Source: Candidatus Omnitrophota bacterium
GTDB taxonomy: Bacteria > Omnitrophota > Gorgyraeia > Zapsychrales > Zapsychraceae
Reading direction: 5' to 3'
Assembly (NCBI GenBank): GCA_020429915.1
Contig: JAGQKV010000031.1
Coordinates: 2,656-66,655 of the forward strand
Length of the DNA: 64,000 nucleotides
The notes beneath the pieces were generated by a model that saw nothing but the letters and a program-made list of their open reading frames with translations, did not search any database and was not told where the DNA came from. Made by a program: the position numbers and the translations under genes. Shown here piece after piece: positions 29,170-64,000 of this stretch. Position 1 is the stretch's first letter; each line of letters opens with the position of its first letter.

Positions 29170-29176
29170 CGCCTTC

Positions 29177-30247
29177 ATGATCGCCCTGGTAAAGAAGCTT
29201 TGTTATTTGATAATCGCCGTCCTTGTATGTGCGGCCGTTTTTACGGTTTTGCTGTTGATCGGTCTCAACACGACGCGGTTTTATGAAAAAGTCGTCCCGC
29301 TGGCGGTCGGCTTTTTTTTCGACGGGATAGACGTCAAGGGCGTTTCCGTTCAAACGGCGAAGTTCCGCTATCCGCCCCGAATCGAACTGGGAGGCGTGGC
29401 GCTGGCGTACCGTGAGCGCGGAACGCCGCATCATGTTATTCTCGACCGCGTAGAGGTATCACGCATATTCGATTTTTTCCGGGGAGAACACCCGTTGGTC
29501 GGACAGATCCTGATGCGCGCTTACGAGGATCATGATGCCGACTTTCAGAATATGATTGTGGATTTGACCCTGACCCGAACTGACTCCGGCAGGTACAAAG
29601 TGGACGGCTCCGGGATTGCAGGAAAAATGACAGCCGGCGGCTACCTTTTAGAGGGTATTCATTTTGATATTCGCGGAGGCGATCCGGTATTCGAATTGCG
29701 TATCAAAGAGGCGAATTTCTACGGCGGGAAGCTTAAGGCTGATATTCAGTTTGAAGTAGCCGGCCGTCAACCTTACACGGGGACCATCGTGCTGTTGAAT
29801 ATTCCCACGGCCAACCTGAATCAAGTTTACCGCGATTTGGAGCGGGATGTCCAGGGGGTCGTATCGGGGGATATGTATGTCGTGGGCGACGCCCACTCGA
29901 TGCAAAATCTGGAGGTTAATTTGACGACCCGGCAGGATATGAATATCCGTTCCGGCCTGGTGGGTTGGCTTGTAGTTAACAGCCAGTTGGAAGACTCCCT
30001 GTTCCGGATGATGAAGGAGGAAGTCCGGCGTTACCCGATGATGCAGTATTACGCCGTTGATATGGCCCTGCAAAGCGAGGGCCAGCACCACATTCGAATC
30101 AAGATGAACATGAAAACACGAAAACACACCTTCGTCGTTAATCCCACCATCGATATCCAGTCCGACGGCGATCTGATGACCACTGTCCGTCAGTTGGACT
30201 TTGGACTCAAGCATGGATCATTGGAGAATTTTTATGTCCGGAATTAA
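29177..30247 (+). CDS. membrane-anchored hypothetical protein (possible YdbH/AsmA-like)
   Basis: There is an N-terminal TM anchor. It lies immediately upstream of YnbE- and YdbL-like genes, as in the E. coli ydbH-ynbE-ydbL operon, but it is much shorter than YdbH. Confidence 0.35.
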   Translation: MIALVKKLCYLIIAVLVCAAVFTVLLLIGLNTTRFYEKVVPLAVGFFFDGIDVKGVSVQTAKFRYPPRIELGGVALAYRERGTPHHVILDRVEVSRIFDFFRGEHPLVGQILMRAYEDHDADFQNMIVDLTLTRTDSGRYKVDGSGIAGKMTAGGYLLEGIHFDIRGGDPVFELRIKEANFYGGKLKADIQFEVAGRQPYTGTIVLLNIPTANLNQVYRDLERDVQGVVSGDMYVVGDAHSMQNLEVNLTTRQDMNIRSGLVGWLVVNSQLEDSLFRMMKEEVRRYPMMQYYAVDMALQSEGQHHIRIKMNMKTRKHTFVVNPTIDIQSDGDLMTTVRQLDFGLKHGSLENFYVRN

Positions 30248-48367: not shown

Positions 48368-49702
48368 GTGACCTTCCACTTTATGACCCTTCATTCACCG
48401 ACATTCCGTCGTTCCGGAAAGGCGTTTCTTTTGCTTATGACGGGATTGACTCTCACCTCTCTGTGCGGGCGCACCGTGGTGCCGGTCCGGGCTCAATCTC
48501 AGTTGGGAGGAACCGGGGCATCCGACGCGAAGAGTAGCGAAACCTATCAGGAGTATCTGGCATTCTTCCGGGAAGTTTTCGATATCATGCGGGAGAATTA
48601 TTACAAGGATATCGATGAGGAAGACTACGACCGGTTTTTGCAAACTTTTGACCAGAAGATATTCGCCCAGCTTAAGGGGGAGGGGAAGTCGAATGACTTT
48701 GTTCGCTGGCGCAGCGCCGCATTTCTGGTCGACTTTCTGAAAGAAGACGACGATATTTTTTCCGCTTTTTATCCGCCGAAACCGGCCAAGGAGTACGAAG
48801 AAACTGCGCTGGGTAAGCGTATCGACCTTGGCCTGGAGGGAGAGCTGCTGCCGGTCGGTTTCCGGCTGACTTTCGTTGAGCCGCGCTCGAATGCCTACCA
48901 GCTGGGAATGCGGGAAAACGACTTGCTAGTCATGATCGATCAGGCAGAAGTGAGCGGTCTCAGCGAGGAGGAAGTGCGTGATCGCTTGCGGCCACTGGAA
49001 GATACGGTCGTGTCGCTGGTGTATTTGGACGGTCAAACCCGGGAGTCCAGGGGAGTCGATGTGGTTTCCGAAGAGTACTTCAAACAGGCGGTGTTCGACG
49101 TTCCCATTCCTGTGCCGGGGATTTATTGCCTGAAAATTGAGCGGTTTAACCGAAAAACTTTTGAGGATGTCTTTCGGTTTCTCACTTTTTATCGTCAACA
49201 TGGGCCGATCAAGGGGTTGATTATCGATTTGCGTGGAAATCCCGGTGGTCCGCCGTTGGCGGCCCGTGAAATCTCATCATTTTTCCTGCCGGCAGGAGAG
49301 GAATTTGCCTATTTTCAGAGGAACAACAAACCGAAGGCCGAATTGGATGTCCCCGAACTGCCCCAGGAACATCATTACGACGGCCCGCTGGCGATCCTTA
49401 TCGACGAGGGCAGCGGCAGTGCCTCGGAGCTTTTTTCAGGAGTTATGCAACAGCGCCGGCGCGCCGTTTTGCTAGGTGAAAACTCCGCCGGGCAGGTGTT
49501 TCTCAAAAGTATGTTTCCGCTGGAAGATGAATCTATGCTATTATTAGTTACCGCACGCGGCCACTATCCTGACGGCCAAGTCTTCAGCTTTCAAGGTTTA
49601 ACTCCGGACCGGCACGTGGCCAGCATGAATCAGGATGACATCCTCAAGTACGCGGCGACATACATTCTCTACGTGAACCAGAAAGACAACGCATCCCTAT
49701 GA
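48368..49702 (+). CDS. S41 family peptidase (C-terminal processing / tail-specific protease-like)
   Basis: It has a signal peptide and a PDZ-like middle. The catalytic region is IDLRGNPGGPPLAAREISSFF (Ser), with ...DEGSGSASE.... Confidence 0.72.
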   Translation: MTFHFMTLHSPTFRRSGKAFLLLMTGLTLTSLCGRTVVPVRAQSQLGGTGASDAKSSETYQEYLAFFREVFDIMRENYYKDIDEEDYDRFLQTFDQKIFAQLKGEGKSNDFVRWRSAAFLVDFLKEDDDIFSAFYPPKPAKEYEETALGKRIDLGLEGELLPVGFRLTFVEPRSNAYQLGMRENDLLVMIDQAEVSGLSEEEVRDRLRPLEDTVVSLVYLDGQTRESRGVDVVSEEYFKQAVFDVPIPVPGIYCLKIERFNRKTFEDVFRFLTFYRQHGPIKGLIIDLRGNPGGPPLAAREISSFFLPAGEEFAYFQRNNKPKAELDVPELPQEHHYDGPLAILIDEGSGSASELFSGVMQQRRRAVLLGENSAGQVFLKSMFPLEDESMLLLVTARGHYPDGQVFSFQGLTPDRHVASMNQDDILKYAATYILYVNQKDNASL

Positions 49703-50457
49703 AAAAGGCACCCGGCCTCAAGACGCTTCAGTCCGAAAAGGGCGCAGTAAATCAAGCGCGACTCCTGATCGTCGTGCCTGCCTATAATGAGGAAGGGAGT
49801 ATCCGCGCGGTGGTGTCCGATATCATTTTGTCTCCTTGGAATTTGGATGTGTTGGTTGTGAACGACGGATCGACGGACCAAACTTTTGAACAGGCGAGGG
49901 CCGCAGGAGTTAATGTGATTTCGCTACCGTTTAATCTGGGTATCGGCGGGGCGGTCCAAACCGGTTTTCAATTTGCCCTGCGTCAGGGTTACGATTTGGT
50001 GGTCCAAATGGACGGCGACGGCCAGCACGATGTCGATTTTCTCGGTACTCTGGTTAATCCCATATTGAACAATGAAGTGGATATGACGATAGGAAGCCGT
50101 TTTATCCCGCCGTATCTCGGCTATCAATCTTCGTTCGTGAGGAGGATCGGCATTAATTTCTTTGCCCGATTGTTAAGTGCTTTAACCGGATCCCCGGTGA
50201 CGGATCCGACCAGTGGATTCCGGGCCTATAACCGGAAAATGATCAATATTTTCGCCCGGTATTATCCGCACGATTTTCCGGAGCCGGAAGCTATCGTCGT
50301 GGCCGGGAGATACGGCGCGCGCATTCGTGAAGTCCCGGTGACCATGCGGGAGCGGCAAGCCGGTTCGAGTTCGATCCGTTATTTTAAAACGTTGTACTAC
50401 ATGCTCAAAGTGACACTCGCCATTTTACTGGGCCGGTTTAAGACCAAGAGGGGATAG
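49699..50457 (+). CDS. GT2 glycosyltransferase (polyprenyl-phosphate sugar synthase, GtrB/DPM1-like)
   Basis: The motifs LLIVVPAYNEEGSI...VVNDGSTDQT...QMDGDGQHD (DxD) are present. Confidence 0.75.
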   Translation: MKKAPGLKTLQSEKGAVNQARLLIVVPAYNEEGSIRAVVSDIILSPWNLDVLVVNDGSTDQTFEQARAAGVNVISLPFNLGIGGAVQTGFQFALRQGYDLVVQMDGDGQHDVDFLGTLVNPILNNEVDMTIGSRFIPPYLGYQSSFVRRIGINFFARLLSALTGSPVTDPTSGFRAYNRKMINIFARYYPHDFPEPEAIVVAGRYGARIREVPVTMRERQAGSSSIRYFKTLYYMLKVTLAILLGRFKTKRG

Positions 50458-50463
50458 CGCGAC

Positions 50464-50847
50464 ATGATCATCAAATTTATAACGGTGAGCGCAGGTTTGA
50501 TGATGGTTGTTTTTGTGCTCGAGTTGATCCGCAAAGAGCGTTTGACTTTTAAATACGCGTTTGCGTGGCTGGGTGTCGGTGCCTTGCTGGTTTTCTTTGC
50601 CGTTTTCGACGGGCTGTTGTATCAACTGGCATATGCTTTGGGATTTCAATTGCCCAGCAATTTTATATTCTTCAGTCTCTCCGGAGTTTTTGTGGTGTTG
50701 AGTTTCCTAATGACGGTTTTTTTGTGCCAGCAAAATGAGCGTAACGATTCCATGGCACAAAAAATCGGAATTCTTGAATTTGAGATCCGCCAACTGAAAG
50801 AAGAGCTTGAGCTAAAGGAAAGAGCGCATGAAAACCAAAAATCTTGA
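50464..50847 (+). CDS. DUF2304-like small membrane protein
   Basis: It has 3 TM helices and a C-terminal coiled coil (EFEIRQLKEELELKE). It lies downstream of a GtrB-like GT2, which is a recurrent pairing. Confidence 0.45.
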   Translation: MIIKFITVSAGLMMVVFVLELIRKERLTFKYAFAWLGVGALLVFFAVFDGLLYQLAYALGFQLPSNFIFFSLSGVFVVLSFLMTVFLCQQNERNDSMAQKIGILEFEIRQLKEELELKERAHENQKS

Positions 50848-51499
50848 ATTGCCCGGGGCTCAGGATTGGAACCATTACTGGGAACGGGGGCAAACCCAGC
50901 GCTTCACCCGTGTCAGCTGGTCCAAGCGGAGGATCATTCGGATGCTGCAGCCGTACTTGAAGACCGGGTGCCATGCGCTCGATGCCGGTTGCGGAAGCGG
51001 ATTCTTTTCACAATTCTTTTGCGAAAGCGGAATGCGCGCCACAGCCCTCGACTACTCGCGGTCTGCTCTTGAAATTGCCGGGTCCAAGACCCGGGGCCGT
51101 GCCAAACTGGTCCAGGCGAATTTGGTGGAAGATGACCTGTCTGTTAAGTTAACGGACCGTTATCACCTCGTTTTTACCGACGGACTTTTGGAGCACTTTG
51201 TTCCCGCCGACCAGGACCGTATTATCCGCAATTTAATGAGTATCCTCGTCGACGATGGCGTGATTGTCACCTTCGTTCCCAACCGCTGGTCGCCGTGGGA
51301 GCTCATCCGACCGCTTTATATGCCGGGCATAAAAGAAGACCCCTTCCGTTTGGGGGAGCTGGTCGACCTGCATGAGCGGAATCATCTTAAGGTCCTCGCC
51401 CGCGGCGGGGTCAATACGGTTCCTTTTGCTTTTTCCCCCGACGGACTCTTCGGTTCGGTTTTCGGGATGTTATTGTTTACCATTGCCAAATTACGATGA
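50828..51499 (+). CDS. class I SAM-dependent methyltransferase
   Basis: Motif I (ALDAGCGSGFFS) is present, as is motif post-I (…ALDYSRSALE). Confidence 0.7.
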   Translation: MKTKNLELPGAQDWNHYWERGQTQRFTRVSWSKRRIIRMLQPYLKTGCHALDAGCGSGFFSQFFCESGMRATALDYSRSALEIAGSKTRGRAKLVQANLVEDDLSVKLTDRYHLVFTDGLLEHFVPADQDRIIRNLMSILVDDGVIVTFVPNRWSPWELIRPLYMPGIKEDPFRLGELVDLHERNHLKVLARGGVNTVPFAFSPDGLFGSVFGMLLFTIAKLR

Positions 51500-52479
51500 C
51501 ACAACCATCCGTTGCGGTCGTCATTCCCGCTTTTAACGCTGAGCAGACCTTGCCTTTCTGTTTGCAGGCGGTAACATCTCAGAACATCCCCCCTCAGGAA
51601 ATTATCGTTGTGGACGACGGATCCTCAGACCGGACTTCGGCCGTGGCCGGTTCTTTTCCCGAAGTGCGCTGTGTGCGACAGGATAATGCCGGGCCGGCAG
51701 CCGCCCGCAACCGCGGTCAGCGCGAGACCGGGGCGGATATCGTTTTGTTCACGGATTCTGATTGTGTTCCGGCTCCCGATTGGGTGGCTGCGGCAGCGGC
51801 CGGGTTTGTGAGGGAAGATATCGGGGCTGTGGCCGGAAGCTACGATATCATCAATCCCGGGTCGCGGCTGGCTCGCTGCATTCACGCGGAGATTTTGTAC
51901 CGGCATCTGCGCTTGCTGCCGGAATATCCCCGGGCTTTCGGGAGTTTTAACGTGGCCATTCGGCGGGATGTCTATGTCGGGGTGGGTGGTTTTGACGAGT
52001 CGTATCCGGCGGCCTCCGGAGAGGATAATGACCTGAGCTACCGGATCCGGCGGGCCGGGTATAAGATCCGCTTCGATCCCCGTTCGCGGGTCGGCCATCA
52101 CCACCCGGAACGGGTCGTGCGTTATCTGCGGGAGCAGTTCCGGCACGGTTTCTGGCGGGTTAAAATGTACCGCGCACATCCGCATATGGCCGGGGGGGAC
52201 GATTATACTTTCTGGAAGGATATTGCGGAGGTGGGGTTGGCGGGATTGACAGGATTGGCGTTGCTGATTTTACCGTTCGGTCTGCCGGCTGTGTGCGTGG
52301 TCGTCTTGGGTGGAGCCCTCATGCTGCTGCAAGCAGGTTTCTGTTTCCGGATCTGTCCTAACATGTTTGACGGAATTTTTTACTCGCTGGTATTGTTTTT
52401 GCGTGCATTCGCGCGTGCCATAGGTTTCTCGTCGGGGATGTTGTCGTCATTCGGCCGCCGAAAAACAAAAAAAAGCTAA
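51496..52479 (+). CDS. GT2 glycosyltransferase with C-terminal membrane helices
   Basis: It has VVIPAFNAEQTL...VVDDGSSDRT...FTDSDCV (DxD) and two C-terminal TM segments. Confidence 0.72.
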   Translation: MTQPSVAVVIPAFNAEQTLPFCLQAVTSQNIPPQEIIVVDDGSSDRTSAVAGSFPEVRCVRQDNAGPAAARNRGQRETGADIVLFTDSDCVPAPDWVAAAAAGFVREDIGAVAGSYDIINPGSRLARCIHAEILYRHLRLLPEYPRAFGSFNVAIRRDVYVGVGGFDESYPAASGEDNDLSYRIRRAGYKIRFDPRSRVGHHHPERVVRYLREQFRHGFWRVKMYRAHPHMAGGDDYTFWKDIAEVGLAGLTGLALLILPFGLPAVCVVVLGGALMLLQAGFCFRICPNMFDGIFYSLVLFLRAFARAIGFSSGMLSSFGRRKTKKS

Positions 52480-52614
52480 AATTGGCTTGTGCCGATAGGG
52501 GCATATGCTAATATAAGGACGTGTTCAAGACCCTAGTCAGATTTTTCGAACCATATTTCGCTATAATTGGAAGGTCATATCTTTCAACAAGATCGATGTC
52601 GTGTCCAAACCGGG

Positions 52615-52633
52615 CCGGGGGACGCCCGGTTTT
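52615..52633 (+). terminator. possible intrinsic terminator (CCGGG-ggacg-CCCGG-TTTT)
   Basis: A short GC hairpin is followed by a T run, about 135 nt downstream of the GT2 stop. The stem is short. Confidence 0.3.
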
Positions 52634-52995
52634 GGCCGGGACAATGAGCCAGACCCATCTTCATCACGCCGCAACTCAGTCCATCCACTTGGGTTCACTT
52701 CATTCCGCCGCGTCTTTCGGATCTTGTTGGTGTTATCCGATGCTATTGAATTTCCTCCATTTTTTTCTTGCAGAATTAGTCAGACGGGCCGATTCCGTTT
52801 TGGACATATTGGCTAAAACTGTTTGCCGTGTTACGTCCACTGAATGTGAAATCCGTGTTTTTCCGGTAACCTGTGGCCGGGAAAATAGCGTTTTCTCGAC
52901 GAGAAAATTGTTCGCGTAGTGATTTTAAATTTATTAAGAAAAAAAAAGAATTTCATCTTGTATTTAGAGATACGTAACTATAAGATTATAACTAT

Positions 52996-53616
52996 ATGAT
53001 TTTGAAGAAGAAAGAAACTGCTGAGCAAAAGCTCCTTAAAATGATCGAGGCGTCTTCCGGAGATGCCGGCGCGGCGTCCCGTGCACAACGCAAAACGTCT
53101 CGCCAGCAAGATGCTTTGTCTCTGCTGAAGACGTTCAACAGTCTGTTGCTGATTTTGATTGTCGGGGTGGCCGTCCTTGTCGGTCTCGAGATCAAAAAGG
53201 GCATGGACATCATGGGAGCGGGCATAGATATCCAGGCGGAACGGGGGATGACAGACTCGATGGACGGTGACAAAGTGCATACGGTCCAAAAATTACCGTT
53301 TTATCTGGCCGGTGTAAACCGTCGCAACATTTTCCGGCCCTATGACGAACAGATCTTTGCCGACGTCAGCCCTGTTCAGGAGCTAATGACCATTACCCGC
53401 AAGACCGAAAATCTTCGTTTGGTAGGGATTTCCTGGATGGATCGCGTCGAAAGCGCCTCGGCGATGATTGAAGATACCGAAAAGCAGGTCACCTACTTCC
53501 TGCAAAAAGGTGAAAAAATCGGCAATATCGAAGTCAAGACTATCTACGCCGACAGCGTGGAACTTGCTCTTGAAAACGAGGAGATGATACTGAGATATGA
53601 CAAACCACAACTGTAA
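52996..53616 (+). CDS. bitopic membrane protein upstream of secretin (possible PilP/GspC-like accessory)
   Basis: The 206-aa product has a cytoplasmic N-terminus, one TM (LLLILIVGVAVLVGL) and a periplasmic domain. It overlaps the secretin start by 20 nt. The AT-rich upstream has TATAAGATTATAACTATATG. Confidence 0.35.
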   Translation: MILKKKETAEQKLLKMIEASSGDAGAASRAQRKTSRQQDALSLLKTFNSLLLILIVGVAVLVGLEIKKGMDIMGAGIDIQAERGMTDSMDGDKVHTVQKLPFYLAGVNRRNIFRPYDEQIFADVSPVQELMTITRKTENLRLVGISWMDRVESASAMIEDTEKQVTYFLQKGEKIGNIEVKTIYADSVELALENEEMILRYDKPQL

Positions 53617-55198
53617 AAAGACTGTACGACGGCGAGCATTTCTCCCGCTCTTGGGCGCCCTCGCGTTGGTTGCCGGTAATTCCACGTTCGCGGCGGCGCA
53701 GGCCCCGCGTCCGATCCAGGTAAAAAACTACGAAGAAGAGATACTTAAACGTATGCAGCGGACGATCACCCTGGATGTCCGGGATATGAACATCGTCGAC
53801 GTCATCAAGTTCCTGGCCCTGAAAGGGGATTTCAATGTGGTCATTTCCCCAACCGTCGAGGGAAGATCGACAGTCTTGTTGAACAGCGTGACCATTAAGG
53901 ATGCGCTTGATATCGTTATTATTTCCAATAACTTAGCGTATAAGATTCAGGGTGAGATTGTTCAGATCATGACTTCTGCCGAGTATGAATCGATGTTCGG
54001 TAAACGTTTTGGCGATCAGACGGTCGTGGCCATTGAGCGCCTGAATTATGCCAAGCCCAGTTACGCTCTGGCCGCGCTGGACAGCATTAAGAGCAACGTT
54101 GGGCGCATTATTATAGATGAAGACACCGGGTCGGTGGTTATGATCGACACCCCCGAATCCATCGCTAAAATGCGTCAGGCCATCCAGGAGATCGAAAAGC
54201 CTTTGGAAACATATATTTACACGCTCCAGTATGCCAGCGCGGACGTGGTGGCCAATAAGTTGCGCGCGCGCATTGATGCCAAGGCTGTCGGTTCGATCAC
54301 GCCCGATGAACGCTCGAACAAGCTCATCGTCCGGGCTTTTCCCGAACGCCGCCGCGAAATCGAAATGATCGTGAAGAAGCTCGACTCTCCCACAAAGGAG
54401 GTGCTAGTCGACGCACGTATTCTCCAAGTCGTTCTCAATCCGGAGTATGACGTGGGCATTGATTGGAACAAGGATTTTCGCAAGAGCGGTGACGATGAAT
54501 TGCGAAAGCTCCAATTTAACAACATTTATCTCAATGCCGACAATTTGTCCAATAGTGACAACCTGGCCAATACATTCGGTCAGGTTGCCTTCGGGGATAT
54601 CAATGTTGATTCATTTGAGCTGACTTTGCGCGCCTTGCGCCAAGTCAGCGAAACCAAGATCTTGTCCAATCCCAAAATCCTGGTGACCAATAATGAAGAA
54701 GCCAAGATTCACATCGGCGATACGGTTCCGTACATCATATCCACCACTTCGGGAACAGGAGACAATGCGATTACAAGCGAAGATGTCCGGTTTATTGATG
54801 TCGGTCTCAAACTCAACGTGACGCCGATCATCAATGACGAAGGCTTTGTGACCATGCGCCTGCGTCCGGAGATCTCCACTATTGTCGGTGTCGTCGAGTC
54901 ACAGGGCGGCGGCATCCCGCAGGTGAATAAGACCGAAGTGGAAACGACGGTCATGGTGCACGACGGGCACAGTATTGTCTTGGGCGGACTTAAAAAAGAT
55001 GACCGGGTCCACTCCAAGAAGGGCTTTCCGGCACTAATGGATGTTCCGGTCATGGGGGCTCTCTTTGGCCGGACATCCGATGAGTATGCTCAAACCGAGA
55101 TCGTTATATTTCTGACACCGCACGTTGTTAAAGGCCACGAAGATTACGCGCAGATGAATGGCAACATCAAACCTTTTAAATCGTATAGTAACGAATAA
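53597..55198 (+). CDS. outer-membrane secretin (T2SS GspD / T4P PilQ family)
   Basis: It has a signal peptide and an N0-like domain (NIVDVIKFLALKGDFNVVISPTVEGRSTVLLNSVTIKDALDIVIISNNLAY). The C-terminal secretin domain carries ...KILSNPKILVTNNEEAKIHIGDTVPY... and ...SIVLGGLKKD....IVIFLTPHVV. Confidence 0.8.
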   Translation: MTNHNCKKTVRRRAFLPLLGALALVAGNSTFAAAQAPRPIQVKNYEEEILKRMQRTITLDVRDMNIVDVIKFLALKGDFNVVISPTVEGRSTVLLNSVTIKDALDIVIISNNLAYKIQGEIVQIMTSAEYESMFGKRFGDQTVVAIERLNYAKPSYALAALDSIKSNVGRIIIDEDTGSVVMIDTPESIAKMRQAIQEIEKPLETYIYTLQYASADVVANKLRARIDAKAVGSITPDERSNKLIVRAFPERRREIEMIVKKLDSPTKEVLVDARILQVVLNPEYDVGIDWNKDFRKSGDDELRKLQFNNIYLNADNLSNSDNLANTFGQVAFGDINVDSFELTLRALRQVSETKILSNPKILVTNNEEAKIHIGDTVPYIISTTSGTGDNAITSEDVRFIDVGLKLNVTPIINDEGFVTMRLRPEISTIVGVVESQGGGIPQVNKTEVETTVMVHDGHSIVLGGLKKDDRVHSKKGFPALMDVPVMGALFGRTSDEYAQTEIVIFLTPHVVKGHEDYAQMNGNIKPFKSYSNE

Positions 55199-55206
55199 CA
55201 AACTTT

Positions 55207-55734
55207 ATGACAAAGGGCTTACATATGCGCCAAAGAGGACTTGAGATGAAAAGCAGCCACCATCCGACGATAATTGTGTGTCTTATGTGCAGCCTCATAC
55301 TCGGCTTGGTTGGAACCGCCGGAGCGCAACTCGAAGGCAAAGAGATTCGCAACCGCGAACACCAGACGCTCGATCTTTTGTCCAATATCGATACCTACAA
55401 TATCAACGATGAACGTCTGCGCATGGATGCGGCGAAGGCGCACTACAATATGGGCAACATATACTTTCAGAAGGGGTACTACGAGATCGCCGCGCGCGAG
55501 TACTATCAGGCGGTTACCCTGATGCCCAACGACCCCGACACGCATTTCAATCTCGCTTTTGTCAGTAGTGAGTATCTAAGGGATTTCAAGACGGCGCTAA
55601 AGCACTACAAAATGTACCTTTATCTGAACCCGGACGCTAAGGATCGCGCCTTCGTGAACGAAAAGATTATGCACGCCCAGTTGGAAATCCGGGGAACTCT
55701 GGACTCCATTCTGGAAAAAGATATCAATAAGTAA
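55207..55734 (+). CDS. TPR-repeat protein with signal peptide (pilotin/PilF-like?)
   Basis: It has an N-terminal hydrophobic segment and then TPRs (AHYNMGNIYFQKGYYEIAAREYYQAVTLMPNDPDTHFNLAFV...). It lies immediately downstream of the secretin. Confidence 0.55.
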   Translation: MTKGLHMRQRGLEMKSSHHPTIIVCLMCSLILGLVGTAGAQLEGKEIRNREHQTLDLLSNIDTYNINDERLRMDAAKAHYNMGNIYFQKGYYEIAAREYYQAVTLMPNDPDTHFNLAFVSSEYLRDFKTALKHYKMYLYLNPDAKDRAFVNEKIMHAQLEIRGTLDSILEKDINK

Positions 55735-55895: not shown

Positions 55896-57512
55896 GTGGT
55901 ATCATTCGGTAGGTCCTACAGTCACATGCGAAATTTATTTTTAGTCAATCTTCAGATCCCCTCAATATTATTTATATTATTGTTTTGCGGATCCGACGCC
56001 CTCGCCAGCAATCTCTCCGTGTCCAATGTCGCCATCGCCTCCCGTAATCCGTCAACCAAAAAGCTGACCGCCACGTTCGATCTTACCTGGGAAAACGCCT
56101 GGAAAACCAAAATCAACCACGATGCTGTATGGGTCACGCTCCGTCTGCATAAGGCAGGAGCCAATCCCGTGGCCAAGAAATTGTGCCCGTTGTCGGCCTC
56201 TGGTCTGAACCCCGCGGGTACGGGAACCGGCACATCCCCCAATATCGAAGTTTATGTTCCCGCGGACAAAGCCGGGGCGTTCTTCCGTTTATCCGACTAC
56301 GGCATCCGGCCTGACGTCGTTTCCCAGGGCGTACAACTGGAGATCGATTACGAAGCCTGCGGATTCGCGGCGGATGACTCGGTCTATCTAAGTGTCTTGG
56401 GGCTTGAGATGGTCTACATCCCGAAGGGTGCTTTCTATGCCGGTGACTATGGGACAAGTACGGCGGTTTTGACCGAAGGCAGCGCGGATACCGATCCGTG
56501 GCACCTTACATCAGCCGGGCCTTTGTCCGTTTCCAACCCGACCATGGACGGCTACCGGTATTCCGCCGTCGGCCACGCGGGCGAGGATGCCTCCGGCAGC
56601 GCCTTCTCGGTACCGGCCGCATTTCCCAATGGTTATAAGGCGTTTTACGTGATGAAATATGAGTTGACTGAGGGACAGTGGGTTGAATTTCTGAATTCAC
56701 TGCCATCCGCGGCGGCGCGTGCTCATCATGATTTGACCGATAATAATCACAAAAACAGCGACGCGGTACGTGCCAGAAACACTGTCAGTTGTTCCGGGTC
56801 TCCGGTAACCTGCTCGACACAACGGCCCTACCGGGCGGCAGGTTATTTGTCGTGGATGGATCTGGCGGCTTTTCTGGACTGGGCGGCCCTGCGCCCCATG
56901 ACTGAACTGGAATATGAAAAGGCCTCCCGCGGACCGGTCGTTCCGGAAGAGGGCGAATTTCCCTGGGGAGACCAAACGATAACCGCCGCAAACACCGTGA
57001 CGACAGGCGACGAAGGCGGGGCCGAACGCGTCCTGACAACGGGCGCTAACGCCCACTTCGGTAGCGCCGTAATCAGCGGCGGTGATTCCGTGTACGGTGC
57101 TGAATACGCATACGGCCCCTTGCGCCAGGGGATTTTCGCCGGTTCCGAATCCACCCGTGTTAGCGCGGGCGCCTCCTATTACGGTGTCATGGAGCTTTCC
57201 GGAAATGTATGGGAACGGACCGTGACCATCGGCAATGCCAGCGGTCGTAATTTTGCCGGTACACACGGTGACGGGATGCTTTCCACGGCAAGCGGTTTCG
57301 AGGGATACGCGAATCAATCCGATTGGCCGGGAATTAATCCTACGCCGGCCCGCGGAGTGGACGGCGCCGACGGATCGGGGTACCGGGGCGGAAGTTTTGC
57401 CGCGTCCCAGGGGACGCTGCGCGTATCCGACCGTTCCAGGGCCGCGGAGACCAACACCGCCGCATCTTCCGACAGCGGCGGCAGAGGAGTAAGGACTGAT
57501 GATGCCAATTGA
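55896..57512 (+). CDS. secreted FGE-sulfatase (SUMF1/GldJ/GldK-type) domain protein, paralog A
   Basis: It has a signal peptide. Strong FGE-family motifs are present: YVMKYELTEGQWVEFLN, ...GYLSWMDLAAFLDWAALRPMTELEYEKASRG (WxDAxAYxxW...PTEAEWE pattern), GNVWER and YRGGSF. A novel ~170-aa N-terminal domain precedes them. Confidence 0.7.
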   Translation: MVSFGRSYSHMRNLFLVNLQIPSILFILLFCGSDALASNLSVSNVAIASRNPSTKKLTATFDLTWENAWKTKINHDAVWVTLRLHKAGANPVAKKLCPLSASGLNPAGTGTGTSPNIEVYVPADKAGAFFRLSDYGIRPDVVSQGVQLEIDYEACGFAADDSVYLSVLGLEMVYIPKGAFYAGDYGTSTAVLTEGSADTDPWHLTSAGPLSVSNPTMDGYRYSAVGHAGEDASGSAFSVPAAFPNGYKAFYVMKYELTEGQWVEFLNSLPSAAARAHHDLTDNNHKNSDAVRARNTVSCSGSPVTCSTQRPYRAAGYLSWMDLAAFLDWAALRPMTELEYEKASRGPVVPEEGEFPWGDQTITAANTVTTGDEGGAERVLTTGANAHFGSAVISGGDSVYGAEYAYGPLRQGIFAGSESTRVSAGASYYGVMELSGNVWERTVTIGNASGRNFAGTHGDGMLSTASGFEGYANQSDWPGINPTPARGVDGADGSGYRGGSFAASQGTLRVSDRSRAAETNTAASSDSGGRGVRTDDAN

Positions 57513-59151
57513 TATGAGACCTGCCTTGCGATTCGTTCTGGGAACAATGACATCTTTAGCCCTCATTTTTCCGGGAACCGCGCTGGCCAATCACCTGCAA
57601 ATCGATAACTATGAGGTGACGGCGATCGACGAGGCCAGCAACATGATGACCTTTACCGGAGATTTCATGTGGGAAAACAGCTGGCGGAATGTCAACAGCA
57701 ACGACGCGGTCTGGGTCTTCGTCAAATATTCCCTCGACGGCGGAGCGACCTGGAACCACGCCAGCATGACATCCAGCGGACTCAATCCCATCGGCTTCGC
57801 CGCTCCGGCGGGCTTCCAGATCGTGGTTCCCAATGACGAGCGCGGATTTTTTCTGGAACCGACGAGCTTCAGCAGCGGTGATGTAAATGTCCAGGGGGTC
57901 AGATTTTCCTGGGATTATGCCCAGGACGGTCTTAGCGATGAACAGGCTATGGCGGCCAATACGATCACCAAGGTTTTCGGTATCGAAATGGTCAAGATTC
58001 CCGAAGGCGCCTTTTACGCGGGCGACGGAAACAGTTCCTCAGCGCATCGCTTTAAGCAAGGTTTGGGTGACAACGATCCGTGGTATATCGAAAGTTCCGC
58101 GGCAATCAATGTCGCCAACGCAGGTAGTGACGGATATTACTACCAAAGCGCCGGAGCCAGCGGAGAGAGTGCCACCGGATCCTCATTCCTGATACCCACG
58201 TCATTTCCCAAGGGTTACAGCGCTTATTATGTGATGAAGTATGAGTTGACTGAAGGGCAATGGGTCAGCTTTTTTAATACTTTAAGTTACGCGCAAAAGA
58301 TGAACCGCGATATTACGGCCGCCAGCCGTGGCGGCAAAAATGCCGATACGATCGTTAACCGCAACACGGTGAGTTGGGATTCCGGCAATCCGCGGGCACA
58401 GGCTAGTACGTCCCGGCCAGACCGCCCGGTGACCTACATCTCGTGGCCGGATTTACTGGCCTACGCCGACTGGGCGGGATTGCGGCCCGTTACCGAACTT
58501 GAGTACGAAAAAGCGGCGCGCGGCGTCGATGTCTTGCCAACAGCTGATGAATACGCCTGGGGCAAGTCGACGTACAACGACGCTCAGGCCGGTGAAATCT
58601 ATCCGAACGCCGACGAGACCGGTCAGGAGCAGATTTTCGACGGTGCGGCCAATCTTAACCGTAACGCGCTCAGCTGGTCATCGGGAGACGGACGGCCCGG
58701 CGGCCCGGCGGACGGACAGAAGGGGCCGCTGCGGGTCGGTATTTTTGCCGAGGACTCCACCAACCGGGTGACGAGCGGCGCCGGATTCTACGGCACCATG
58801 GAGTTGTCCGGCAACCTGGCCGAAATGGTGGTATCGGTCGGCCGTACGGAAGGGCGCAATTTTTTGGGTTCGCATGGCGACGGTATTCTCTCCAGCGCCA
58901 CCGGATATGCCGGTAACGCGACCAACATTGACTGGCCGGGGATTGATCCGGTCGATCCGAACCGCGGCGTGACGTCCACGGTCGGTTCGGGGACCCGCGG
59001 CGGGGACTTTCAATCCGCGGATGTCAGACTGTTCCAGATTTCCACCCGGACTAACGCTACGCGCGACCCGGATAGTGAGGGGTACTACCAGCGTTTCGAT
59101 CCGGCGTTCGGGGTATTCCAGGGGGGCCGTCTGGCTCGCACGGCTCCTTAG
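57499..59151 (+). CDS. secreted FGE-sulfatase-domain protein, paralog B (tandem duplicate of A)
   Basis: It is collinear with A, sharing the YVMKYELTEGQWVSFFN, ...YISWPDLLAYADWAGLRPVTELEYEKAARG, MELSGN and TRGGDF motifs and the same N-terminal domain (…WENSW…NHDAVWV…). It overlaps A by 14 nt. Confidence 0.7.
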   Translation: MMPIDMRPALRFVLGTMTSLALIFPGTALANHLQIDNYEVTAIDEASNMMTFTGDFMWENSWRNVNSNDAVWVFVKYSLDGGATWNHASMTSSGLNPIGFAAPAGFQIVVPNDERGFFLEPTSFSSGDVNVQGVRFSWDYAQDGLSDEQAMAANTITKVFGIEMVKIPEGAFYAGDGNSSSAHRFKQGLGDNDPWYIESSAAINVANAGSDGYYYQSAGASGESATGSSFLIPTSFPKGYSAYYVMKYELTEGQWVSFFNTLSYAQKMNRDITAASRGGKNADTIVNRNTVSWDSGNPRAQASTSRPDRPVTYISWPDLLAYADWAGLRPVTELEYEKAARGVDVLPTADEYAWGKSTYNDAQAGEIYPNADETGQEQIFDGAANLNRNALSWSSGDGRPGGPADGQKGPLRVGIFAEDSTNRVTSGAGFYGTMELSGNLAEMVVSVGRTEGRNFLGSHGDGILSSATGYAGNATNIDWPGIDPVDPNRGVTSTVGSGTRGGDFQSADVRLFQISTRTNATRDPDSEGYYQRFDPAFGVFQGGRLARTAP

Positions 59152-59263: not shown

Positions 59264-62200
59264 ATGAGAAAATCCACAAAATCAGGCTGGTATCTCCATT
59301 TGCACAGGGCCGTGACGTGTGTCGTCGCGGTTCTGTTTATATTTGCGCAAATTCCGACGGTATCGTATGCGCAATTTACAGGTGGTCCCTTTAGCGGGGA
59401 CGAAGAATCATCCCTTGGTGATGATATCTATACGGGCGGGCCCAATTCGGGCCTTTCGAGTGGCACTTCCCCCAGCGCCGAGTCTTTGTCACACGGCGCT
59501 CCCACCAAACTGGTCTTCACACAATACCCTTCCGCAACAAAGCACAGCGTGGAATTTCGCCGCCAACCGATAATCGAAATCCGCGATGCCAATGACAACC
59601 TTGTCACAACCGACAACTCCACTCAAGTTACGTTGGATATCTTTAACAACCCCGGGGCCGGTGAGTTGCGTGGGACCACGACGCTTACCGCATCCGGTGG
59701 AAAGGTCGAGTTTACCGGCTTGTCCGTTACCACCGCGGGGGAGATGTATTCACTCATTGCCACGGCTCCCGGCCTGACATCGGCCATCTCGGATCCCTTT
59801 GATATCTTTCCGGGTACCGGTGTCAGGCTGGCAGCCGTATGGGATGATTCGGCAAATTCAGGAGACGGGGCCTTCACGATTTATGCATGGATTGAGTCCG
59901 ATGGTAACCGTATGCCTTTGGATGACGGGACCAATGCTATCTGTCGCGCGGCTACGTTGTACAACTCTTCCGGTGCAGGCGAACCAGGGGCTGGTGGAGA
60001 AACACCCGGTGGACGGTTGACGTTCGGGGAAAACCTCGCCCACGATGACACGCTACCGAACAATGCCAGAGACTGGTGTCAATCCGAAGAGTGGACGCCT
60101 TCCGACTTTCTCGATTCGTACTACATCAATGTTTCCGTACGGGACGAAGTGCCTACAGACTATTCCACATACGTAGCCCTACCGACCATTAAACCTTCAT
60201 TATCTGACATAGCTGAGAATTTTAACTGGGACCGCATCGAGGCCATTTTCGATGCGACCGACGACATCAATTGGGAAGACATCAGCGCCATCAAGGCCTC
60301 TACCGATACCATCAATTGGACGGATATCGAGACCCTGCGTTCCGACGTTACCTCTATAAAGGGTGTCACCGATTCGATGACGGCGGCCGGAATCAACTGG
60401 GATGATGTGGGAGTCATGAGTTCGGCCGATATCAATTGGGACGATATCATGCGCTTGACGGTGGCCGGTATCAACTGGACCGACTTCGATGTCTTGAGCG
60501 ACGCGGGCATCAACTGGGCGGATATTGCCGTCCTCAGTCTGGAGGGGATTAACTGGTCCGATCTTGAAGTGATGAGCGAGGCCGGCGTGAACTGGGAAAG
60601 TCTGAACGAACTGACCACCGCCGGCGTCAACTGGTTTGACATCGCCGTGATGAGCGGGGCCGGTGTCAATTGGGCGGATATCGACATCCTGAGTGACGCC
60701 AACATCAACTGGGCCGATCTGCAGTATATGTCCACGGCCTCCGTGAACTGGGATGACATTGCCAAGATGAGCGGGGTCGGGATCAATTGGGACGAGCACA
60801 TCAACTGGGATTCGCTCGCGCAATTAACCAACGCCGGCGTCAACTGGGATGACCTTGTCGAACTTTCCGAGGCCGGGGTGAATTGGGACGACATCGGAGT
60901 GATGTCCACGGCCGGCGTCAACTGGGCCGACATCGACGTGCTCAGCGACGCGGGAATCAATTGGGACGATATCGGCGCTCTGTCATTGGCAGGCATCAAC
61001 TGGGCCGATATCGATGTGTTGAGTGATGCCGGCGTGAACTGGTCCGATCTGACGGTCCTGACCATGGCCGGTATCAACTGGGCGGACATTGACGTATTAA
61101 GTGCGGCGGGGATCAATTGGGCCGACCTGGCCGCCATGTCGACCAGCGCCGTAAACTGGGATGATTTCCGGGTCCTGTCCGAGGCCGGTGTGAATTGGAG
61201 CGATCTGAACGCGTTGTCCACCGCCGGGATCAATTGGACCGACATCGGCGTTATGTCCGATGCGGGGATCAATTGGGCCAATATTCAGGCATTGAGCACG
61301 GCGGGCATCAACTGGGACGACATCAATGTCCTTAGCGACGCCGGCATCAACTGGAGCGATATCGGCGCGTTATCCGTTGCCGGAATTAATTGGCAGGATA
61401 TTGATGTCCTCAGCGACGCGGGTGTTAACTGGAATGATCTGCAGGCATTATCGACAGCGGGGATCAACTGGACGGACATCGATGTGATGAGCGAGGCCGG
61501 CGTCAACTGGTCGGGAATCCAGGCCCTCTCCGTTTCCGGTATCAACTGGACGGACATCGACGTGCTCAGCGAGGCGGGTATCAACTGGAGCGACATCGGC
61601 GCGTTGTCCACCGCCGGCGTGAACTGGCTCGATATCGATGTGCTCAGTGATGCGGGTGTGAACTGGTCCGATCTGCAGGCGTTATCGACAGCAGGCATTA
61701 ACTGGGATGACCTCAACGTACTGTCCGGGACCAACATTAACTGGAGTAATATTGCCGAGCTCTCCGCCGCCGGCGTGAACTGGACGGATATCGACGTGCT
61801 CAGCGGGGCAGGGGTGAATTGGGCGGATATTCAGCAATTATCGACGGCGGGCATCAATTGGTCGGATATTGACGTGCTCAGCGGGGCCGGAGTGAACTGG
61901 TCCGGCATTCAGGACTTGTCGACAGCCGGCATCAACTGGACCGATCTGGATGTTCTCAGCGAAGCGGGGGTCAACTGGTCGGGAATCCAGGCGCTCTCCG
62001 TTTCAGGGATCAACTGGACAGACATCGACGTGCTTAGCGACGCCGGTATCAACTGGGACGATCTGCAGGCGCTCAGTGTGGCAGGCATCAATTGGGCGGA
62101 CATCGACGTCATGTCCGACGCCGGAATCAACTGGGCGGATATCAATGTCCTGAGCGACGCCGGAGTGAACTGGTCGGGAATCCAGGACTTGTCCGTGGCC

Positions 62201-64000
62201 GGCATCAACTGGGATGACATCGATGTGCTCAGCGACGCCGGAGTCAACTGGAACGGTATTCAAGCCTTATCGACCGCGGGTATCAATTGGTCGGATGTCG
62301 ATGTGCTCAGCAGCGCCGGCATCAACTGGTCCGATCTGCAGGCTCTGACGACTACCGGTATCAACTGGTCCGATGTCGATATCCTCAGCGACGCGGGCAT
62401 CAATTGGTCAGATATCGAAGCCTTCTCTAAGGCAGGTATCAACTGGGCGGATATCGATGTCCTGAGCGATGCCGGTATCAACTGGTCCGACATCCAGGCC
62501 ATGACGGTTGCGGGTATCAACTGGTTCGACATCGATGTCCTCAGTGACGCCGGTATCAACTGGGCGGATCTGTCGGCGATGTCGACGTCTTCAATCAATT
62601 GGGATGACATTAATGTCCTGACCTCGGCGGGTGTGAACTGGACCGATCTCTCGGTGTTATCCAAGGCCGGTATCAACTGGGATGATTTCTCCGTTATGTT
62701 CGCGGCCAGTATCAATTGGGATGATATCAGCTCGTTGACCCGCTCCGGTGTCAACTGGTCGGATATTGATGTCATGAGTGACGCGGGTATCAATTGGGCG
62801 AATATCGGCGAGCTGTCTTTGGCCGGTGTCAACTGGGACGACCTGCAGTCGTTGTCGGATGCCGGAATTAATTGGACCGATATCAACGCCTTAAGCACCG
62901 CGGGTATCAATTGGACGGACATTGATGTCCTCAGCGACGCGGGCGTTAACTGGGCGGATATTGCCGTATTGTCCGCGGCGGGCGTGAATTGGGAAGACAT
63001 CGACGTACTCAGCGACGCCGGCATCAATTGGGCGGACCTGGAGGCATTGACGACCGCCGGAATCAACTGGACCGATATCGATGTGCTCAGTACAACGGGT
63101 ATCAACTGGTCGGGTATTCAGGCTTTGTCGGTGGCGGGCATCAACTGGACGGATATCGACGTCTTGAGCGAAGCGGGCATCAACTGGGCGGACATCGGCA
63201 GTTTGTCGGTGGCGGGCATCAACTGGGCAGATATTTATGTGCTGAGTGATGCCGGAGTGAATTGGGCGGATATCACCGTGATGTCGGCAACCGGGATCAA
63301 TTGGGATGATATCCAGGTCCTGTCGGATGCCGGAGTGAATTGGGCGGATATCAATGCCCTGTCGACCAGCGGAATCAACTGGACGGATATCGATGTTCTC
63401 AGTGAAGCAGGCGTGAATTGGGCGGATATCGCGGCGCTGTCGCTGAGCGGTATCAACTGGAATGATCTCGACGTGCTGAGTGATGCCGGAATCAATTGGT
63501 CCGGTATCCAGGCTTTGTCCGTCGCCGGAATCAACTGGGACGACATCGATGTGCTGAGCGATGCAGGCATCAACTGGGATGATGTCAACGCGATGAGCGT
63601 GGCCGGGATCAACTGGGATGACATCGGTGTTTTGAGTGAGGCGGGAGTCAATTGGTCGGATATCGCGGCGCTTAGCGTGGCCGGCATCAATTGGGATGAT
63701 ATCGACGCGCTCAGTACCGCCGGCATCAACTGGGCGGACATTGGCAGCATGTCCACGGCCGGGATCAACTGGACGGATATCGATGTGCTCAGCGGGGCCG
63801 GAATTAACTGGACCGATATTCAGGCCTTGTCCGTCGCGGGCATTAACTGGTCGGATATCGACGTACTCAGTGACGCCAACATCAACTGGCTCGGCATTCA
63901 GTCGCTGTCGGTCGCGGGTATCAACTGGACGGATATCGACGTGCTCAGTGACGCGGGTATCAACTGGGCGGACATTCAAGCCTTGTCGGTGGCCGGAGTA
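59264..64000 (+). CDS. giant secreted tandem-repeat protein (at least 1578 aa, 3' end beyond the window): signal peptide, ~320-aa N-terminal region, then ~95 copies of a 13-aa repeat INWxDIxxLSxAG
   Basis: It starts at ATG 59264 (MRKSTKSGWYLHLHRAVTCVVAVLFIFAQIPTVSYAQ). I hand-translated frame 2 continuously to the window end and found no stop. The only track ORFs over 60.2-64.0 kb are the minus-strand ones rejected below, which fits an incomplete + ORF running off the end, assuming the track omits ORFs that lack an in-window stop. From about 60.22 kb the protein is a 39-nt periodic array. Confidence 0.75.
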   Translation, partial: MRKSTKSGWYLHLHRAVTCVVAVLFIFAQIPTVSYAQFTGGPFSGDEESSLGDDIYTGGPNSGLSSGTSPSAESLSHGAPTKLVFTQYPSATKHSVEFRRQPIIEIRDANDNLVTTDNSTQVTLDIFNNPGAGELRGTTTLTASGGKVEFTGLSVTTAGEMYSLIATAPGLTSAISDPFDIFPGTGVRLAAVWDDSANSGDGAFTIYAWIESDGNRMPLDDGTNAICRAATLYNSSGAGEPGAGGETPGGRLTFGENLAHDDTLPNNARDWCQSEEWTPSDFLDSYYINVSVRDEVPTDYSTYVALPTIKPSLSDIAENFNWDRIEAIFDATDDINWEDISAIKASTDTINWTDIETLRSDVTSIKGVTDSMTAAGINWDDVGVMSSADINWDDIMRLTVAGINWTDFDVLSDAGINWADIAVLSLEGINWSDLEVMSEAGVNWESLNELTTAGVNWFDIAVMSGAGVNWADIDILSDANINWADLQYMSTASVNWDDIAKMSGVGINWDEHINWDSLAQLTNAGVNWDDLVELSEAGVNWDDIGVMSTAGVNWADIDVLSDAGINWDDIGALSLAGINWADIDVLSDAGVNWSDLTVLTMAGINWADIDVLSAAGINWADLAAMSTSAVNWDDFRVLSEAGVNWSDLNALSTAGINWTDIGVMSDAGINWANIQALSTAGINWDDINVLSDAGINWSDIGALSVAGINWQDIDVLSDAGVNWNDLQALSTAGINWTDIDVMSEAGVNWSGIQALSVSGINWTDIDVLSEAGINWSDIGALSTAGVNWLDIDVLSDAGVNWSDLQALSTAGINWDDLNVLSGTNINWSNIAELSAAGVNWTDIDVLSGAGVNWADIQQLSTAGINWSDIDVLSGAGVNWSGIQDLSTAGINWTDLDVLSEAGVNWSGIQALSVSGINWTDIDVLSDAGINWDDLQALSVAGINWADIDVMSDAGINWADINVLSDAGVNWSGIQDLSVAGINWDDIDVLSDAGVNWNGIQALSTAGINWSDVDVLSSAGINWSDLQALTTTGINWSDVDILSDAGINWSDIEAFSKAGINWADIDVLSDAGINWSDIQAMTVAGINWFDIDVLSDAGINWADLSAMSTSSINWDDINVLTSAGVNWTDLSVLSKAGINWDDFSVMFAASINWDDISSLTRSGVNWSDIDVMSDAGINWANIGELSLAGVNWDDLQSLSDAGINWTDINALSTAGINWTDIDVLSDAGVNWADIAVLSAAGVNWEDIDVLSDAGINWADLEALTTAGINWTDIDVLSTTGINWSGIQALSVAGINWTDIDVLSEAGINWADIGSLSVAGINWADIYVLSDAGVNWADITVMSATGINWDDIQVLSDAGVNWADINALSTSGINWTDIDVLSEAGVNWADIAALSLSGINWNDLDVLSDAGINWSGIQALSVAGINWDDIDVLSDAGINWDDVNAMSVAGINWDDIGVLSEAGVNWSDIAALSVAGINWDDIDALSTAGINWADIGSMSTAGINWTDIDVLSGAGINWTDIQALSVAGINWSDIDVLSDANINWLGIQSLSVAGINWTDIDVLSDAGINWADIQALSVAGV
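60220..64000 (+). repeat. tandem array of 39-nt (13-codon) in-frame repeats, with alternating A/B subtypes giving a 78-nt super-period; about 95 units within the window
   Basis: Near-identical units such as atcaactggacggatatcgacgtgctcagcgacgcgggt recur throughout. Consensus A is (G)INW(T/A/S)DIDVLSDAG and consensus B is (G)(I/V)NWSDLQALS(T/V)AG. Confidence 0.9.

Follow-up and report, generated by a model that had tools for sequence, protein, structure and literature searches.

Two adjacent genes, which we refer to as A and B, lie near the end of a 64,000-nt stretch of a Candidatus Omnitrophota genome assembly (GCA_020429915.1, contig JAGQKV010000031.1), hereafter the window. Both are encoded on the plus strand (gene A at positions 55926–57512 of the window, gene B at 57499–59151), and in both products a signal peptide is followed by a β-sandwich domain and by a domain with the fold of formylglycine-generating enzymes (FGEs). 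The pair stands between a small secretin module and a gene for a giant repeat protein. This gene context, which the initial annotation missed, is our main new result. Together with the features of the proteins themselves, described below, it makes a non-enzymatic, structural role the best reading of A and B, which are most likely parts of a hitherto undescribed cell-envelope export or anchoring machine.

B starts with ATG and has 550 residues. For A, sequence comparison indicates that the start is most likely ATG 55926 (528 residues) rather than GTG 55896, which gives the 538 residues assumed in the initial annotation. The ATG is preferred because a database protein 100% identical to A (P0121, 528 residues) begins at this position and because orthologues align from there. 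The two proteins had been described as collinear tandem duplicates whose genes overlap by 14 nt, and this was borne out: they align collinearly over 527 residues with 42% identity (BLASTP, E = 7e-124), and the overlap is indeed 14 nt. The same 14-nt overlap was found again in 15 related loci, and shorter overlaps in 10 more. Moreover, a Shine-Dalgarno-like element, AGAGGAG, is located on the plus strand within the 3′ end of gene A (57483–57489), 9 nt ahead of the ATG of gene B. The element inside A and the overlap point to translational coupling of B.

The larger, C-terminal part of each protein has the FGE fold. In A it covers residues ~160–528 (nt 56403–57509) and in B residues ~162–550 (nt 57982–59148). 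The Pfam family FGE-sulfatase (PF03781) matches A with E = 1.3e-10 and 41.9 bits (residues 248–528 in the numbering of the 538-residue, GTG-initiated form) and B with E = 6.8e-16 and 59.1 bits (residues 241–375), the curated cut-off being 23.3 bits. The AlphaFold2 (AF2) model of A, built from 148 diverse family members, has a mean predicted local distance difference test score (pLDDT) of 95 and a predicted template modeling score of 0.92; it consists of the signal-peptide helix, an all-β sandwich and an α/β domain. The top Foldseek matches of the α/β domain are bacterial FGEs (6xtq, E = 3.6e-9; 5nxl, 6muj and 2q17), with E-values to FGE structures ranging from 3.6e-9 to 4.5e-7, and they are followed in the ranking by EgtB, CalU17 and OvsA. 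A search of PDB with the family profile also returned FGE at the top (E = 7e-11). The AF2 model of B, made from 49 close homologs, was usable for the N-terminal domain alone, its FGE part having pLDDT below 50. The FGE fold itself is a variant of the C-type-lectin-like fold.

Characteristic FGE motifs are retained, namely MVxIP-G-F, YxxKYE-T, RLPTE-E-E, WG, GNVWE and RGGS. Comparing the spacing of these motifs with that in human and T. curvata FGE, we located three extra segments in the FGE part of A: ~45 residues between MVxIP and YxxKYE, ~30 residues between WG and GNVWE, and ~20 residues between GNVWE and RGGS. All three are modeled with pLDDT above 90, and in the model they are structured elaborations, not disordered linkers. 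The presence of extra segments, noted initially as long Gly/Ser/Thr-rich insertions, was confirmed.

The conserved fold is not accompanied by the conserved catalytic residues. True FGEs carry two catalytic, Cu(I)-binding cysteines just past the RGGS motif (GGS-x-x-C-x-x-x-x-C; GGSFLCHESYC in T. curvata FGE). When B is aligned with the T. curvata enzyme, the two Cys positions are occupied by Ser and a gap. A cysteine within 14 residues of RGGS is present in 8 of 283 family members and a Cys pair in none of the 283. The initial annotation had recognized that FGE catalytic residues were lost, which is correct, with the qualification that the missing part is this Cys pair after RGGS; the motif itself reads RGGSF in A and RGGDF in B, as it described. 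What it took for a replacement of the active site, GN(V/L)xE, turned out to be a canonical structural motif of FGEs. The motif can be matched residue by residue, YGVMELSGNVWER of A corresponding to YGLYNVAGNVWEW of T. curvata FGE and to YGLYDLLGNVWEWT of SUMF2, and its Asn and Glu are more than 90% conserved across the family. Intact catalytic cysteines together with sulfatase neighbors would have spoken for an active enzyme. We found neither: the Cys pair is absent, and Pfam scans of ~40 open reading frames (ORFs) of the window detected no sulfatase domain.

EgtB, OvoA and SenA require an N-terminal DinB-like domain with a three-His iron site. No DinB-type domain is present in A or B, as their N-terminal domain is all-β and the NCBIfam models of EgtB and SenA score 8–28 bits against cut-offs of 360–420, with the matches confined to the RLPTE region. 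Membership in the EgtB/OvoA/SenA group was rejected on these grounds. Because the Cys pair and the DinB domain are absent, and no sulfatase is encoded in the ORFs scanned, an FGE-type enzymatic role of A and B is judged from sequence to be very unlikely, and we regard both as exported pseudoenzymes with the FGE fold. Database names such as 'nonheme iron enzyme' and 'formylglycine-generating enzyme', carried by thousands of proteins, are therefore misleading, and we correct them here.

The N-terminal domain preceding the FGE fold had been described as shared by A and B and unrecognized, and our searches agree: neither Pfam nor NCBIfam matches the first ~160 residues. In the AF2 models this region is a β-sandwich of ~130 residues (A, residues ~28–159, nt 56007–56402, or ~31–165 as seen in the model; B, residues ~31–161, nt 57589–57981), and the model of B independently yields the same sandwich as that of A, with pLDDT of 85–94. 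The domain is family-specific, and its motifs W-x-N-x-W and N-x-D-A-V-W-V are nearly invariant. W59, D66, W69 and E161 are among the invariant residues of A. A Foldseek search against PDB gave no match at E ≤ 1e-3. The weak structural neighbors, all at E > 1e-3, are β-sandwiches of adhesin, pilin and cohesin type, the nearest being the CLIPPER domain of a fibrillar adhesin (9ifr, E = 3.7e-3). Using a profile of the domain, we detected 2,085 clusters (50% identity, E ≤ 1e-3) among 1.84 billion representatives, and we take these roughly 2,000 clusters to define a new β-sandwich domain family. All nine of the longer proteins sampled from this list carry FGE-sulfatase too, and therefore the N-terminal domain accompanies the FGE fold in every architecture sampled. 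The sampled proteins include fusions of the two-domain module to a hydrazine-synthase-α middle domain and a cytochrome c domain (P0478), to CBM9 (P0369) and to β-propeller repeats (P0388 and P0412); in some of these four proteins the N-terminal domain is internal or repeated.

Both proteins carry predicted signal peptides, assigned from the leader sequences (A, residues 1–27, nt 55926–56006; B, residues 1–30, nt 57499–57588). An AxA-type signal peptidase I site ends 259 of 273 leaders in the family, and the mature N-terminus that directly follows it, N-N-L-x-I-x-N, is nearly invariant. A lipobox-like string occurs in 8 of the 273 leaders. The initial annotation had wondered whether the LFCGS sequence of A might be a lipobox, but its Cys 21 is conserved in 9% of A orthologs, and with the AxA sites this led us to reject the lipoprotein reading. 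Judging by these leaders, A and B are likely substrates of Sec and signal peptidase I and not lipoproteins.

Omnitrophota are widespread uncultured nanobacteria thought to be attached to or to prey on other microbes. Searches with B returned more than 2,900 homologs. The best 120 are full length and 58–98% identical, and those of them that are named come almost entirely from Candidatus Omnitrophica/Omnitrophota metagenome-assembled genomes, as is also the case for A. We then scanned one genome per GTDB species, obtaining 129 matches, of which 78 loci were kept. Almost all of these are labeled Omnitrophota; a few have other bin labels, which we take to be generic or the result of mis-binning. 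Two FGE-like copies are present in 65 loci and a single copy in 10. In a neighbor-joining tree of 146 proteins from these loci, the main group splits into an A clade, always encoded by the first gene, and a B clade, always encoded by the second, and the two clades branch in parallel. The tandem duplication noted initially is thus ancient: the comparison places it early, apparently within Omnitrophota, and pairs in some distant lineages may represent independent duplications. Four cysteines, Cys 87, Cys 145, Cys 289 and Cys 296 (around nt 56184, 56358, 56790 and 56811), are invariant among A-clade proteins but do not occur in the B clade; these probably pair as two disulfides, with one bond in the N-terminal domain and the other in the FGE part. 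This pattern is as expected for sub-functionalized subunits made in fixed proportion. Translational coupling and the divergence of A and B into two orthologous lineages make it probable that the two function as a hetero-oligomer.

We next turned to the genes surrounding the pair. Upstream of it lies the secretin module, all on the plus strand. The first gene (52996–53616) encodes a small GspC/PilP-like protein, matched by Pfam T2SSC (PF11356) with E = 1.9e-5 and 24.9 bits (cut-off 27) and weakly by NCBIfam GspC_delta; it overlaps the start of the secretin gene by 20 nt, and its product is likely the inner-membrane partner of the secretin. The secretin, an outer-membrane channel protein of 533 residues (53597–55198), has strong Pfam matches (Secretin, 6.8e-49; Secretin_N, 4.8e-24). 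Among NCBIfam models it scores 250 bits with PilQ, 250 bits with GspD and 178 bits with MshL, each below the subfamily cut-off. The third gene (55207–55734) encodes a small tetratricopeptide repeat (TPR) protein (Pfam TPR_11, 4.9e-12, plus TPR_1 and TPR_2). It has weak matches to PilW, Tgl and PrsT, and its position is that of a pilotin, PilW or MshN.

Downstream of B, on the same strand, is the 5′ part of a gene for a giant secreted repeat protein (59264–64000), the ORF of which extends past the window end. In the product, a signal peptide and a ~330-residue N-terminal region precede 95 copies of a 13-residue repeat, A-G-[IV]-N-W-x-D-I-x-x-L-S-x, with a spacing of exactly 13 residues in 91 of 94 cases; at the DNA level the repeat has periods of 39 and 78 nt. 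The ~330-residue N-terminal region is conserved in related loci, in one of which (L002) the homolog has 4374 residues. Neither the N-terminus nor the repeats have a Pfam or PDB relative. The repeat faintly resembles dockerin/EF-hand calcium-binding loops, yet it is too short for one.

How typical is this arrangement? We searched the 78 species-level loci with the window proteins using tblastn, and the fractions below refer to loci with enough sequence. The conserved order is (ExeA-like ATPase), GspC-like protein, secretin, TPR protein, A, B and giant 13-residue-repeat protein. Of 64 loci, 61 have a secretin gene no more than 3.5 kb upstream of the FGE-like genes, 59 have the TPR protein, and 58 have a GspC-like gene ahead of that for the secretin. 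A homolog of the giant protein directly follows the FGE-like gene(s) in 63 of 65 loci. In 32 loci the GspC-like gene is preceded by a gene for an ExeA/GspA-like P-loop ATPase (TIGR03015-like, 188 bits), which sits between a glycosyltransferase gene and the GspC-like gene (for example, at 4319–5221 in L003). The window does not contain this ATPase: at the corresponding place there is a 517-nt gap (52480–52995) with no tblastn trace of it. In distant lineages (L057, L062–L064, L068, L069, L071, L074, L075, L077, L080 and L081) the upstream housekeeping genes are gone, and the secretin, the FGE-like gene(s) and the giant gene remain together. The genes of the module, all on one strand, overlap or follow each other closely, and no convincing terminator separates them; our promoter and terminator scans performed no better on this region than on shuffled sequence. 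The ORFs scanned over the 56 kb upstream encode no pilin or pseudopilin, GspE/PilB or GspF/PilC; genes for these may lie in other parts of the genome.

The members of the module differ in conservation. Median identity to the window proteins is 63% for the secretin, 60% for B, 56% for the TPR protein, 55% for A, 40% for the N-terminus of the giant protein and 34% for the GspC-like protein, and the mean column identity among 49 B orthologs is 61%. A and B thus resemble the secretin in their conservation, a pattern more in line with a machine component than with an exposed adhesin.

Pseudoenzymes of this fold in an export machine have a precedent. In the PorKN ring of the type IX secretion system, an FGE fold without catalytic cysteines serves as a docking hub (PorK, PDB 9OTS); insertions of PorK form the ring contacts, and the former substrate groove holds a partner (PMC12421860). 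By analogy, A and B may be a non-catalytic, PorK-like scaffold or adaptor that links the secretin to the giant repeat fiber, a reading that we favor tentatively and to which we give a little less than even weight. In such a model, A and B would be exported by Sec into the periplasm and would assemble at the secretin into a hetero-oligomeric scaffold or adaptor. This scaffold would then dock, guide or anchor the giant repeat fiber as it passes to or through the outer membrane, with protein–protein contacts made, as in PorK, through the insertions of the FGE fold and through the groove that once held the substrate.

Several points weigh against this model. It builds on observed features (an FGE fold stripped of its catalytic residues, a type-I signal peptide, the paralogy of A and B, and a conserved gene neighborhood) and adds to them the binding of A to B, their retention in the periplasm and their contact with the secretin or the giant protein, which we infer. 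A and B, not being lipoproteins, are without the outer-membrane tether of PorK, GldK and GldJ. Their many invariant polar residues could form an unrecognized active or ligand-binding site. Three loci (L066, L073 and L076) carry an FGE-like gene without an adjacent secretin; L073 is without the giant protein as well, and L066 and L076 retain a homolog of it. Because these two loci keep the giant protein in the absence of the secretin, the giant protein is the tightest partner of A and B. Finally, synteny in the main clade reaches unrelated housekeeping genes (lplA, S41 peptidase), and for this reason part of the conserved order must reflect general collinearity.

A more specific version of the scaffold model is possible, although we consider it somewhat doubtful: the locus may encode an envelope machine specific to Omnitrophota, in which a stand-alone secretin, helped by the GspC-like protein, the TPR protein and sometimes the ExeA-like ATPase, extrudes or anchors a single-polypeptide fiber of strict 13-residue repeats, several thousand residues long, and a hetero-oligomeric ring or adaptor of A and B couples the fiber to the channel. 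If true, this would be a case of independent, convergent reuse of the FGE fold as a secretion scaffold, in a system other than type IX and a phylum other than Bacteroidota. Alternatively, A and B could be the cargo, that is, secreted lectin- or adhesin-like subunits that leave through the secretin and either bind glycans of prey or host or decorate or cap the fiber. Sec signal peptides without any membrane anchor in both proteins, the kinship of the FGE fold with C-type lectins, the adhesin-, pilin- and cohesin-type neighbors of the N-terminal domain (with 9ifr the best at E = 3.7e-3) and the fusions of related proteins to CBM9 and β-propeller repeats all speak for such a role, as does the view of Omnitrophota as attached predators or parasites (PMC10066038). 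However, B is as conserved as the secretin (median 60% versus 63%; column mean 61%), which would be unusual for an exposed adhesin, no carbohydrate-binding family was detected in A or B, and every structural match of the N-terminal domain has E above 1e-3. On balance, we consider the cargo role unlikely.

It is quite improbable that A, B or both are non-canonical enzymes that modify the giant protein (whose invariant Asn-Trp or Asp residues would be possible sites) or some other periplasmic substrate. The family is nearer to FGE, EgtB, CalU17 and OvsA than to PorK both by sequence and by fold, it has invariant charged and aromatic residues beyond the canonical motifs (THGDG, DWPG, GDGR, R503), and it is very tightly linked to a single, highly repetitive, substrate-like protein. 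Yet the copper-binding Cys pair of FGE and the DinB-type iron domain are both absent (the latter with NCBIfam scores of 8–28 bits against 360–420), and we know of no FGE-family chemistry that does without both. Furthermore, the retention of two diverged paralogs in constant order is more in keeping with a structural heteromer. We assign a similarly low, marginally smaller likelihood to the neighborhood being of no functional consequence, with A and B performing an unrelated periplasmic role and their adjacency reflecting conserved gene order in small genomes. Such an explanation could draw on the breadth of main-clade synteny, which spans lplA, an EF-hand protein, the S41 peptidase and a GT2-DUF2304 cassette, and on the three loci without a secretin, but it does not account for the distant lineages that lose the housekeeping flanks while keeping the secretin, FGE-like and giant genes, nor for the close or overlapping genes on one strand with no convincing terminator. 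Least credible, to the point of being nearly dismissed, are the possibilities that A and B are ordinary FGEs for sulfatases or targets of a diversity-generating retroelement with an FGE-type lectin fold. The Pfam FGE-sulfatase match and automatic names such as 'SUMF1/EgtB/PvdO family nonheme iron enzyme' would suggest the former, but the catalytic Cys pair is missing family-wide, and the ~40 ORFs scanned include no sulfatase. As for retroelement targets, a blastn search of A and B against the window found A–B paralogous matches only and no template-repeat-like copy, the family is highly conserved and not hypervariable, and TvpA-type structures are not among the Foldseek matches at E ≤ 1e-3. 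Within the window, the retroelement-target reading was rejected on the lack of a template-repeat-like copy and the conservation of the family.

How does the proposed scaffold compare with known systems? By analogy, the function of A and B would be most like that of PorK, GldK and GldJ, although they fall outside that family. The initial annotation had suggested a structural role as in GldJ/GldK, and its non-enzymatic part stands while family membership does not. NCBIfam models of GldJ, GldK and PorK, the comparison it had proposed, gave no match even at E ≤ 10; the family profile found no PorK chain in PDB at E ≤ 10, and PorK is not among the Foldseek matches of A at E ≤ 1e-3. These results and the lack of a lipobox led us to reject membership. 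Both groups have an FGE fold that has lost the two catalytic cysteines and gained insertions, and both are encoded beside an outer-membrane export machine; moreover, GldJ and GldK are side-by-side paralogs. They differ in that PorK, GldK and GldJ have lipoprotein signals whereas A and B have type-I signal peptides, and that A and B possess the additional N-terminal β-sandwich and have their insertions at other positions (as inferred from the FGE alignments), with no similarity detected beyond the fold. The channel also differs, being Sov/SprA there and a secretin here, as does the phylum (Bacteroidota versus Omnitrophota), and no PorN/GldN, PorL/M or Sov/SprA was seen among the window ORFs scanned.

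FGEs proper (human SUMF1 and the T. curvata and S. coelicolor enzymes) provide the best sequence and fold matches of the family, but A and B differ from them by lacking the copper-binding Cys pair and a sulfatase context, and by having ~100 extra residues in the three insertions as well as the N-terminal domain of ~130 residues. SUMF2 (pFGE) is similar in having an FGE fold without catalytic cysteines and in pairing with another FGE-fold paralog; in contrast, it is a single-domain protein of the eukaryotic endoplasmic reticulum that regulates an active FGE, whereas A and B are both inactive and belong to a bacterial envelope context. The upstream genes are reminiscent of modules of the type II secretion system (T2SS; GspA/ExeA-GspB/C-GspD) and of the MSHA pilus (MshL-MshM-MshN), since they encode a GspC-like protein, a secretin and a TPR protein and, in 32 loci, an ExeA-like ATPase. 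They differ from these in having no adjacent pilin, pseudopilin, GspE or GspF genes and in a secretin that falls below every subfamily cut-off. To our knowledge, no T2SS or type IV pilus locus has two FGE-fold proteins and a giant repeat protein following the secretin.

Within Omnitrophota, a T2SS-like secretin locus located just upstream of giant genes has been proposed to serve attachment or predation (West-Roberts et al., bioRxiv 10.1101/2023.11.21.568195). In that locus, gspD, gspE, gspF, rcpC and a gene for a peptidyl-prolyl isomerase lie upstream of genes for proteins of more than 30,000 residues, and the study makes no reference to FGE, sulfatase or SUMF1 domains. The phylum and the position of a secretin locus upstream of a very large gene are the same in our case, but the large protein here is the 13-residue-repeat protein, with the 4374 residues seen in L002. 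Our literature searches found no description of FGE-like proteins beside a secretin in Omnitrophota. Non-catalytic FGE-fold envelope proteins as such were already known; the N-terminal domain, the partner channel and the phylum are new. The module of a secretin, a giant repeat protein and two pseudoenzymes is conserved across much of the sampled phylum, and this makes it a concrete candidate for Omnitrophota attachment machinery. If the scaffold model is true, the sulfatase-maturation fold would have been turned into a structural part of an export machine a second time, independently of PorK/GldK/GldJ.

Some further features of the window are worth recording. Directly upstream of the secretin module is a cassette of GT2, DUF2304, methyltransferase and GT2 genes (49699–52479). 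The cassette is syntenic in most main-clade loci, about a third of which include the methyltransferase gene, and it might glycosylate a lipid carrier or the exported proteins. The region at 8–22 kb holds a dcw cluster (penicillin-binding protein, MurE, MurF, MraY, MurD, FtsW, MurG, MurC, Ddl, FtsQ and FtsA), and the other ORFs scanned include glycine-cleavage genes, lplA, S41 peptidase and glycosyltransferases. Two consecutive plus-strand ORFs at 27592–30247, of 525 and 356 residues, have no Pfam match at E ≤ 1e-5. The long ORFs that scan as real genes are nearly all on the plus strand, and each 2-kb bin shows a positive GC skew, consistent with co-directional genes on one replichore arm.

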